Shown one piece after another: positions 42-2,359 of a stretch of 30,893 nucleotides of DNA. The notes under the pieces are model-generated. The model was not told the DNA's origin. It did no database searches and saw only the letters and a list, made by a program, of their open reading frames with translations. Origin of the DNA: Pseudomonadota bacterium (GTDB lineage Bacteria > Pseudomonadota > Alphaproteobacteria > Paracaedibacterales > CAITNM01); NCBI GenBank assembly GCA_026400695.1, contig JAPLON010000104.1, positions 1 to 30,893 on the forward strand, written 5' to 3'. The translations under genes were made by a program, and so were the position numbers. Numbering within the stretch: the first letter of the stretch is position 1; each line of letters begins with the position of its first letter.

Positions 42-66
42 TATAGTGACCCCCAAAGTCAAGAAC
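42..66. repeat. IS3 right terminal inverted repeat (IRR)
   Basis: Its reverse complement GTTCTTGACTTTGGGGGTCACTATA aligns with 2698-2722. Confidence 0.85.
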
Positions 67-96
67 TTATATCTTTTAGGTGTGGTACAAGGAATT

Positions 97-240
97 AAAC
101 AGTTGGCTTGAAAGAACATTGATCACAAGAATCGCTCTTAGAAAAAGCAGCTGTTTCGTAGAGTAGGATTAGCTTTGAACGAATTGCTGACAGGACAGCT
201 TTAGAGCTGCCGCTGTGTACAATAAGAAGAAGGGGGCTTA
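97..240 (+). ncRNA. Putative IS110 bridge RNA (target-binding loop ~97-156, donor-binding loop ~171-238)
   Basis: Hand-folded stems: 97-109/145-156 with inner 120-123/131-134, and 171-176/233-238 with inner 190-200/205-216. The loops carry AAGAAC and CTTAG (match the target) and AATTGCT and ATAAG (match the circle junction). Ends are approximate. Confidence 0.75.
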
Positions 241-242
241 CC

Positions 243-1187
243 ATGTTAACAACTGTAGGACTAGACGTATCTAAAGCCACACTCGATTTTTGCGTTTTAA
301 AAACCAAGGACGACCGAAGATTTTATAAATTCGATAATAACGCAGATGGCCATCAAAAACTGTTGGATTTGTTGGCAAACCTAGAAGTAGCATTAGTGGT
401 TTTAGAGCCAACCGGAGGTTATGAGGCCACAATTTGCGCTGTATTGCATCGCCATAAATATGCTATCCATAGAGTGAATACATTATCATTTCACAAGTTT
501 GCTAAATCTTTAAACTAAAAAAAAAATCGGATCGATGCGTATAAGCTAGCTTACTATGGAGTTAGTATGGATGTTAAAGCAAATTATCACCAATCAGAAT
601 ATCAGCAGCAACTTAAGGATTTGGTGGCTAGACGAGAGTACTTGGTTAGTCAATTATCCAATGAAAAGAAAAATTTAAAACATAAAGAGCTCTCAAAAAT
701 AAAATATTCTATTAGCTCTCATATTACTTACTTAGTGAATGCGATTAAGGAATTGGATAAGCAAATTGATGAGTTTGCCTTATCTGAAGAAGATCAAGCC
801 AAGAAAGTTGAGCTGGCATGTTCTGTTCCAGGTATAGGTAAAACTCTTAGTTATAAGTTGTTAGCCTTTTTGCCTGAATTAGGGGATGATTCATTTGATT
901 TAAATGAATTGACAGCGATCACAGGGCTTGCTCCATACTGTAGGGACAGTGGAAATAAATCAGGTAAGCGCTTTATTCGAGGAGGGCGCAAAATCCCACG
1001 AGATGCTTTATATATGGCGGTGTTGAGTGGTTTTCATAAAATTCCTTTGTTAAAAAATTTAAAAGAAAGATTGCTAAAAAAAGGTAAACCTAAAACGGTT
1101 GCGATTGTTGCTTGTATGCGAAAGCTGTTGGGAATTTTGCACTCCATTCTTAAAAGGCAAGAGGAATTTGTTGAGCAGATCGTTTAG
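243..1187 (+). pseudogene. IS110-family recombinase/transposase, split by an in-frame TAA
   Basis: N-terminal RuvC-like GLDVSK and VLEPTGGYE motifs, C-terminal SVPGIG and GLAP..RDSG motifs. ORFs 243-518 and 567-1187 are in the same frame: AKSLN-TAA(516-518)-KKNRIDAYKLAYYGVSM, with an A10 run at 517-526. The usual KTDxxDA motif reads KKNRIDA. Confidence 0.9.
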
Positions 1188-1199
1188 AAGACATTAGTA

Positions 1200-1273
1200 G
1201 TTACCCACAAGTCCACAGTCCTCCCAGAGCCCTTAATTGCTCTGGGCATTGGCTCGTGGACACTGTGGGTAAC
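1200..1273. repeat. Long interrupted palindrome in the IS110 right end
   Basis: GTTACCCACA/TGTGGGTAAC, GTCCAC/GTGGAC and CCCAGAGC/GCTCTGGG nested stems around an 8-nt loop. Confidence 0.85.
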
Positions 1274-1322
1274 ATGTGTCCCAAGCGGAAATTATTTTTT
1301 AAAAAACATTCAAAGATAATTG

Positions 1323-2359
1323 CTAAGCAGCTATTTTTGAGGAGAGATTCATCGTTTGTTTAACTTTCTTTTGCTGCCTAATTTTTTCTTTTGTTTTTCC
1401 GTTTGTTATTGTAGTTGGGCCTTGTGGATCTCGTGGGTAAGTCGAAGACTTATCCACATATCTACAGGCCTGAGTTCCCTTGCTTTCTAGACTTCCCACC
1501 AACTTCGGCATAAATGCCCACTGAGTAGCTTCCGCTTTACCTGTCATCACCTCATGCGGCCTATGCTGGTTTATTCCGCTGTGCCTGCGTGAATAGTTAT
1601 ACCAGTGAATATAAGCATCCAAGCTTGCCTTGGCTTCCTTTACACTTTCGTAAGTATTTAAGTAAACTTCTTCATATTTTACTGTTCTCCAGAACCTTTC
1701 AATTGGTATGTTATCTAGGGCTCGGCCCTTGCCATCCATACTGATTCTTACCCCAAGCAACGTCAGTTGATAAATCCATTCCTGGCTGGTGAACTGGCAG
1801 CCTTGATCAGAATTGATAATCTTTGGTTTGTAACCCTTGGTAATCGCCATTTCTAGCGCCCTTAAACAACTTTCCGTATCAAGGCTCGTGCTAATATGCC
1901 ACCCCATCACATGGCGACTCAACACATCAATTAATACGGTTAAATAGATAAATCCAGTGGCTGTCTTGATGTAGGTGATATCTACACACCAGACATCGTG
2001 CGGCTTTAACGGTGGATATCCTTCAACAAATATGGAAACACTTTATGTTCATGATTACGCTTGCTTAGGTTTTTCTTTGGATACACCGCCTCCAAACCCA
2101 TCAACTTCATCAATCGATAAACCTTTTTGCGGTTGATAGGGTAACCTAAGTCCTTTAAATCCCAGGTAATCCGTCGATATCCTTGAAATGGCCTCATGGC
2201 ATAAATCTCTCGAATTTCATTCATGATTGTGACCGTATCATCAGCACAGGCCTTGGGCCTCACATAGCAGCTTGAAAGATTCACATCTAAAAGCTTGGCT
2301 CGAGAACGTTTGCTTAAATCTTGATGCCCACTTTTTACAAGTTCTTGCCGTTCTTTCAT
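1323..2359 (-). pseudogene. IS3 orfB DDE transposase, frameshifted near 2010-2020
   Basis: The 2006-2359 ORF ends LLKDIHR*. The adjacent frame continues PLKPHDVWCVDITYIKTATGFIYL..IDVLSRH into the 1323-1925 ORF, with D (VDITY), D (NSDQG) and E (IERFW). One missing base explains the break. Confidence 0.92.
1418..1470. repeat. Imperfect palindrome in the IS3 orfB tail containing a perfect DnaA-box sequence (TTATCCACA, 1450-1458)
   Basis: GGCCT..GTGGAT..GTGGGTAAGTC-GAA-GACTTATCCAC..ATCTAC-AGGCC. Confidence 0.7.

Follow-up and report, generated by a model that had tools for sequence, protein, structure and literature searches.

Insertion sequences (IS) of the IS110 type that carry a 5' bridge RNA, recombine at a CT core and land in repeated DNA are established (PMC11208160). 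In the bridge RNA of IS621, the left target guide comprises 9 nucleotides (nt), has the sense of the top strand and includes the core, whereas the right target guide comprises 4–7 nt complementary to the core and the right flank; the loop also contains a small internal hairpin (PMC11208160). Natural redirection is also established: in the pairs ISEc11/ISXne4 and ISEc21/ISMch6, close relatives differ by an exchange of their short target-matching stretches (PMC11187229). In addition, the IS1111-type elements IS4321/IS5075 target the terminal repeats of Tn21-family ends (Partridge and Hall, 2003). No published description of an IS110-type element aimed at the end of an IS3-family element was found in the part of the literature that was covered, which is weak evidence of absence. 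Here we describe an IS110-family element nested in an IS150-like IS3-family element, located at positions 42–2724 of a 30.9-kb stretch of alphaproteobacterial DNA (hereinafter referred to as the window), and compare its target guides and insertion site with those of its closest relatives.

The window corresponds to the first 30.9 kb of contig C1 in a metagenome-type assembly of 1.57 Mb and 168 contigs (genome G000). UvrB shares 81% identity with proteins from uncultured Alphaproteobacteria and 71% with its counterpart in Candidatus Finniella inopinata, so that the host probably belongs to the small-genome alphaproteobacteria of the Paracaedibacter/Finniella kind. Order-wide scans covered 62 species genomes, of which G001 and G012 are congeneric with the window genome. 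The reading that we favor, with a probability of about 0.55 and based on sequence comparison, is a guided IS110 insertion whose guide had been retargeted to the IS3 end; it concerns one copy and includes a one-base register slip. The element would have been inserted by bridge-RNA-guided recombination at the CT within the orfB stop codon, which borders the IS3 right inverted repeat on its inner side. The target loop of the window variant would have been naturally retargeted to the conserved IS3 end AAGAACA-CT-AAG, which would provide a multicopy site in the genus without interruption of host genes.

Structure of the nested locus and its empty site

The composite spans 2.68 kb. The IS110-family element occupies 68–1324 on the plus strand (1,257 bp with one CT counted) and has no terminal inverted repeats; it was assigned by Pfam matches and alignment to G012, and its ends were set by alignment to six contig-end copies in that genome. 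Its gene separates the IS3 right inverted repeat (42–66, minus strand) from the orfB stop codon and the rest of the minus-strand IS3. The core of the detached repeat (47–66) is identical to that of 18 copies in G001, and the outer end of the repeat was placed where the flanks of the G001 copies diverge. Each junction carries a copy of the CT core, at 66–67 on the left (plus strand) and at 1323–1324 on the right. The right copy is the complement of the AG in the orfB stop codon TAG (cta, 1323–1325, minus strand), the same stop as in all related IS3 copies. A preliminary description of this DNA had placed the IS110 insertion on the orfB stop codon with the codon left intact, and both points were confirmed.

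To count related ends, the 62 genomes were scanned for a pattern consisting of the inner right repeat followed by the stop-codon region. We identified 35 related empty IS3 ends in six genomes, namely 18 in G001, 11 in G023, 3 in G012, and 1 each in G004, G035, and G033. The multicopy nature of the IS3 end, which had been assumed in the preliminary description, was borne out by the copies in G001 and G023. Because the repeat and the stop-codon region were contiguous in all 35 copies, IS110 is the later arrival. The sequence AAGAACA-CT-AAGCAGC was found in 34 of the 35 empty ends, with AT in place of AC in the other one, and the same-genus copies in G001 matched the window without a difference over 20 bases toward the repeat and 30 bases toward orfB. 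Judging from these alignments, AAGAACA-CT-AAGCAGC is almost certainly the ancestral form of the site, from which the window differs by the absence of AC at the left junction alone.

This comparison modifies two earlier claims. The spacing obtained by removing IS110 and one CT from the window, AAGAA-CT-AAGCAGC, had been taken as the original junction, but it was found in none of the 35 empty ends. Further, the insertion had been thought to spare both inverted repeats. The right and left terminal repeats are indeed present and common to relatives, but the inner edge of the right repeat was not fully spared, because two bases are missing at the left junction. That is, CT lies on both sides of the element, yet two bases of all 35 related empty sites are absent in the window. 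Off-register strand exchange was considered as the cause of this loss and was ruled out, since recombination with one cut on each strand leaves all target bases in place. The simplest explanation would be a loss of AC by slippage on the ACAC run, which the empty site shares with the expected left junction; such slippage may have preceded or followed the insertion.

Bridge-RNA-like left end and the sister element in G012

The left non-coding end of the element comprises 175 nt (68–242) upstream of the gene and contains guide segments at 111–120, 135–141, 180–188, and 219–226. In the alignment with the left end of the G012 element, three short blocks of variable sequence lay between long invariant stretches. 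In the window, they consist of AAGAACAT(T) at 112–120, the loop of a small hairpin, and CTCTTAG at 135–141, whereas in G012 they are GGAGATCT(T), a different loop, and AACTGAG; the rest of the scaffold is 86% identical. From the G012 comparison and the centroid fold, a bridge-RNA-like target loop was assigned to 97–156 on the plus strand. Its basal stem is formed by 97–105 and 148–156, which are complementary, invariant in both elements and the sole helix in the centroid fold, and a hairpin is located at 121–134. The putative left target guide lies at 111–119 in the register validated with G012, or at 112–120, and the putative right target guide lies at 135–141; both are on the plus strand and hypervariable relative to G012. 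In addition, a donor-binding loop is predicted from the sequence at 180–226 (plus strand), with a hairpin at 193–211. As expected for such a loop, 180–188 corresponds to the element's right end followed by CT, and 219–226 is complementary to CT plus the left end. The donor-loop segments are conserved in G012 as far as the G012 contigs extend. The bridge RNA and its fold are putative and were inferred from the G012 comparison and from complementarity.

The sister element in G012 is 86–88% identical to the window element at the ends and is multicopy, six copies being seen at contig ends. In four of these copies (C11, C20, C18, and C63), the left guide corresponds base for base to the eight flank bases ending in CT. 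The same four copies sit in a non-coding repeat that is longer than 450 nt and present in at least 12 copies, with 4 copies occupied and 4 seen uninterrupted (loci L126–L137, for example L132:1100–1750 and L128:1250–2246). No Rfam match was found for this repeat, and it was absent from G000, G001, and G004. The repeat is the preferred landing site of the G012 variant and, because this repeat is multicopy like the IS3 end, the lineage tends to land in repeated DNA.

A fifth G012 copy is located in a conserved gene region, and its flanks could be paired via the uninterrupted ortholog in the window's own genome (C56). The length of the C56 region is exactly that expected for a scarless CT-core insertion, which fixes the register, bases 8 and 9 of the left guide being those that pair with the core. 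This copy represents an off-target insertion, with 4/6 matches to the left guide and 1/3 to the right guide. The right guide of G012 predicts CT+CAG, and the two right flanks seen were CT+CAT and CT+CGT.

Of eight positions in the left guide, six differ between the window and G012, and the window guide resembles the flank of its own element. The guide segments covary with the insertion sites between the window and G012, the differences falling at exactly these segments. We infer from this covariation that the window and G012 elements are related by natural retargeting of the target loop within the genus.

Fit of the window guides to the IS3 end

The right guide of the window is complementary to CT+AAG, that is, to the exact right flank (5/5 positions). 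The left guide includes AAGAAC(A), the 6–7 bases that precede CT in the IS3 end. When the register is shifted by one base, 112–120 pairs with the conserved IS3 end over nine positions (eight Watson-Crick and one G-U), and when a one-base bulge is allowed in the RNA, the left guide pairs with the observed junction over seven positions. A scan of both strands of the assembly revealed three other sites that match the guide-like segments as well. These were a single occurrence of the ideal 11-mer, which is empty and lies outside any repeat family (C127), one site with a longer spacer, and one 10-mer of the AAGAA-CT type. On sequence grounds, the resemblance between guides and site is far beyond chance, and a chance origin is excluded. 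Because so few other sites in the assembly match the guides this well, the insertion appears to have been guide-directed. The preliminary description had also noted a mismatch in the distal guide bases (GA against TC); this depended on a register one base off the one validated with G012.

Some other features of the element ends were recorded. AAGCAGC at 146–152, which equals the right flank, was considered as a guide and rejected, as it belongs to the 3' strand of the basal stem and is conserved in G012, which has other targets. The eight bases AAGCAGCT occur both at 145–152, in the same stem strand, and at 1325–1332, directly right of the insertion; this recurrence was treated as a coincidence, because G012 retains the stem copy while having different targets. 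If the element were excised as a circle, with 1320–1324 joined to 68–91, the junction would read TTGCTT-17 bases-TACAAG, a sigma-70-like promoter by sequence directed toward the target loop at 97; in the integrated state, IS3 sequence replaces its -35 part. At the other end of the element, the right non-coding end (1188–1322, plus strand) is 87–88% conserved in G012 and contains a long nested hairpin at 1200–1273 (-53.3 kcal/mol, z -7.5 relative to shuffled sequences), followed by an A/T-rich stem. This hairpin may be a terminator or a protein-binding structure.

Searches for further copies and composites

Nucleotide and protein searches found no other IS110 or IS3 of these kinds in the assembly. 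Among the 62 genomes of the order, this IS110 was found in G012 alone, and the genomes rich in IS3 copies lacked it altogether. When all species-representative genomes were searched for the target-loop scaffold, four matches without further similarity were obtained, about the number expected by chance. In the JGI metagenomes, a transposase-alignment scan detected L031 as the sole near copy, together with one 61% relative on a short contig, and nothing close to the IS110 was found in plasmid and viral collections. No second composite was found in the assembly, the 62 genomes of the order, the species-representative genomes, or the JGI metagenomes. A mobile unit would be expected in at least two whole copies with different outer flanks, but the composite was represented by a single copy.

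Decay of both elements

The IS110 recombinase gene (243–1187, plus strand) matched Pfam PF01548 (N-terminal DEDD RuvC-like) and PF02371 (C-terminal Tnp) above the cut-off, and a C-R-D-S-G stretch with the conserved serine was present. The closest intact relatives of the recombinase were P0001–P0003, at 85–89% identity, and P0034, with P0002 representing a cluster of 68 members, and lesions were judged against the intact relatives of 315 amino acids P0001, P0002, and P0005. The gene is in a single frame throughout, with a TAA at codon 92 (516–518) and a one-codon deletion that removes the first aspartate of the invariant motif K-N-D-R-I-D; D96 and D99 are invariant columns of the alignment. In the IS110 family, this motif carries two of the four catalytic acidic residues. 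Without a complete DEDD tetrad and open reading frame, the gene is a pseudogene of an IS110-family member. L031 (JGI Ga0194038_1019413, 1–2298) contains an internal IS110 fragment that is 98% identical to window positions 505–1087 and has the aspartate stretch intact, so the aspartate lesion is specific to the window copy. This fragment, which contains no element ends, adjoins the end of an IS1595-like transposase gene on one side and an IS66-family transposase gene on the other, and IS-in-IS nesting seems common in the lineage.

The IS3-family element is also damaged. Relative to the intact orfB in G012, its orfB (1323–2359, minus strand; HTH_21, rve, and rve_3 domains) has lost 1 nt near 2024 and is consequently divided between two frames. 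The intact IS3 relative in G012 encodes an orfA product of 104 amino acids and, in the -1 frame, an orfB product of 374 amino acids; the window copy has one extra frameshift. The orfA gene (2356–2649, minus strand) encodes an HTH_Tnp_1 domain, and the left inverted repeat (2691–2724, minus strand), with its tip at approximately 2724, is shared with relatives. The 3' tail of orfB differs from that of G012 by indels of 6, 6, and 3 nt and still looks coding. An imperfect palindrome (GTGGGTAAGTC ... GACTTATCCAC) was observed at approximately 1434–1458 in the 3' part of orfB, and its motif GTGGGTAA recurs in the right-end hairpin of IS110.

In the favored reading, both elements would have decayed after insertion, IS110 by the stop codon and the loss of the conserved aspartate, and IS3 by the frameshift in orfB. 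The defects in both transposase genes had escaped the preliminary description. The locus is a fossil, and neither element is able to move alone in this genome. For annotation, 42–2724 is therefore a nested pair of dead insertion sequences that contains no functional transposon.

Weighing the explanations

Several observations weigh against a guided insertion by a retargeted element. No other copy with the guides of the window is known, and all of the 35 related IS3 ends are unoccupied. In the register established with G012 (111–119), the window guides specify AAGAAC-CT-AAG, which falls one base short of the conserved IS3 end and exceeds the observed junction by one base, and under strict application of this register only 2–3 of 7 left positions pair. 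The missing AC requires a separate event besides one-cut-per-strand recombination. As regards the RNA, the minimum free energy (MFE) structure calculated for the left end did not surpass those of shuffled sequences, no Rfam match was found in window 1–2800, and no compensatory changes were seen in the left-end stems. Because the MFE is no better than that of shuffles, the loop model rests on the G012 comparison and complementarity. The earlier proposal that the bridge RNA is programmed against the IS3 end is supported by the resemblance of the guides to this end and by the covariation with G012, but it is weakened by the single copy and the 1-nt slip. It had also been stated that the proposal would be refuted if other IS110 copies lay mostly outside IS3 ends or if no empty IS3 copy showed the reconstructed junction. 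Formally, both apply, since none of the empty ends shows that junction and the G012 copies, the only others found, do lie outside IS3 ends; the latter point carries less weight, as the G012 guides differ.

The one-base register mismatch to the G012-validated geometry would also be expected if the insertion was a one-off event at a near-cognate, half-matching site and the preferred target lay elsewhere, ideally at AAGAAC-CT-AAG(AG). The right half of the IS3 end matches the guide and the left half does so with a 1-nt slip, and the copy would have survived because insertion of one IS into another is costless. G012 itself provides a precedent with its off-target copy in a conserved gene region, half-match insertion, for which a fit of part of the bridge RNA suffices, has been reported for IS621 (bioRxiv 10.64898/2026.08.31.748434), and the apparent frequency of IS nesting in the lineage, exemplified by the L031 fragment cut by two other ISs, as well as the vacancy of the other IS3 ends, fits such an event. 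However, the ideal 11-mer occurs only once in the assembly, in no repeat family, and is empty; moreover, 6–7 consecutive bases of the IS3 end in the left guide are improbable for an unrelated site. The empty ends themselves say little, because the genomes rich in IS3 lack this IS110. We therefore regard a near-cognate insertion as possible but rather unlikely. The one-base register problem, like the loss of two bases, is relevant to the strictness with which the spacing between the two target guides is read by bridge recombinases, which matters for the prediction of off-target sites.

The preliminary description had further suggested that the 2.68-kb composite could move as one unit, with IS3 transposase supplied in trans, in which case IS3 and IS110 would have arrived in one piece. 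Both outer IS3 repeats are present, the single IS110 of the assembly lies within its single IS3, and TTA occurs at 39–41 and 2725–2727. With the left tip placed at 2724, the two TTA triplets may represent a 3-bp direct repeat; such a match is weak evidence where the DNA is rich in A and T, and insertion of IS3 alone before IS110 would account for it equally well. The idea of a mobile composite was nevertheless not upheld, given the single copy, the two broken transposases, the absence of composites from all collections searched, and the absence from the assembly of any other IS3 transposase gene that could act in trans; we consider it quite improbable. An artefact of joining reads from two repeats might be suspected in a metagenome-type assembly of 168 contigs, the more so as the contig begins just 41 bases outside the IS3 repeat (window 1–41; neither these bases nor the right flank recur elsewhere in the assembly). 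Against such a chimera, the junctions are base-exact with CT on both sides, the IS3 halves resume exactly as in empty ends, and both elements are single-copy in the assembly, leaving no repeat to mis-join, so that this explanation is extremely improbable.

Beyond the favored guided insertion at this one IS3 end, a wider interpretation can be proposed, though it is doubtful. An IS110 sub-lineage may exist whose bridge RNA is aimed at the junction of orfB stop and right repeat in IS150-like IS3 elements, using them as safe multicopy harbors with occasional co-travel. In such a sub-lineage, a bulge of one base adjacent to the core would be tolerated in the pairing, an arrangement not described for IS621.

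Comparison with known systems

Members of the IS150 group have a helix-turn-helix (HTH) orfA, a DDE integrase orfB in the -1 frame, and TGACCCC terminal repeats, and generate a 3-bp duplication. The window IS3 resembles them in its HTH orfA, its -1-frame DDE orfB, TGACCCC a few bases from the tip, and a possible 3-bp duplication. It differs in an extra orfB frameshift, the 1.26 kb of inserted DNA that separate the stop codon from the right repeat, and an unusually long C-terminal tail of orfB.

The inserted element resembles IS621 and other IS110-type elements (PMC11208160, PMC11208158) in its DEDD and Tnp recombinase, long non-coding left end, CT core, and lack of terminal repeats. Like IS621, it has two predicted loops with arms matching the target and the joined ends, respectively, a left guide in top-strand sense and a complementary right guide, and its lineage prefers repeated DNA. 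Unlike IS621, its target is the end of another IS rather than a repetitive extragenic palindromic (REP) element, and its left guide needs a 1-nt slip; the window copy is also inactivated, and its RNA and fold are putative.

IS4321/IS5075 are similar in that they are DEDD elements found at a fixed position in the terminal repeat region of another mobile element, which constitutes a multicopy site. However, they are of the IS1111 type, with subterminal repeats, a non-coding region downstream of the gene, and hundreds of independent insertions. The window element is of the IS110 type, has an IS3-family host, and is known from one insertion. Its longer, guide-bearing non-coding region is located upstream of the gene and no subterminal repeats were seen, which does not agree with IS1111-type architecture. 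Nor does it show the many independent same-position insertions of an end specialist, with 1 occupied end against 35 empty ones in six genomes that lack this variant.

The pairs ISEc11/ISXne4 and ISEc21/ISMch6 share with the window and G012 elements a common RNA scaffold with differing target stretches and correspondingly different sites. The window/G012 pair is closer (approximately 86–88% nucleotide identity at the ends), and one of its partners is a single dead copy. The two elements would thus provide a within-genus example of a bridge-RNA element changing its address, the G012 variant being found in a non-coding repeat and the window variant in the tail of an IS3. The habit of landing in the ends of mobile elements, known from IS1111-type elements, would thereby be extended to the IS110 type.

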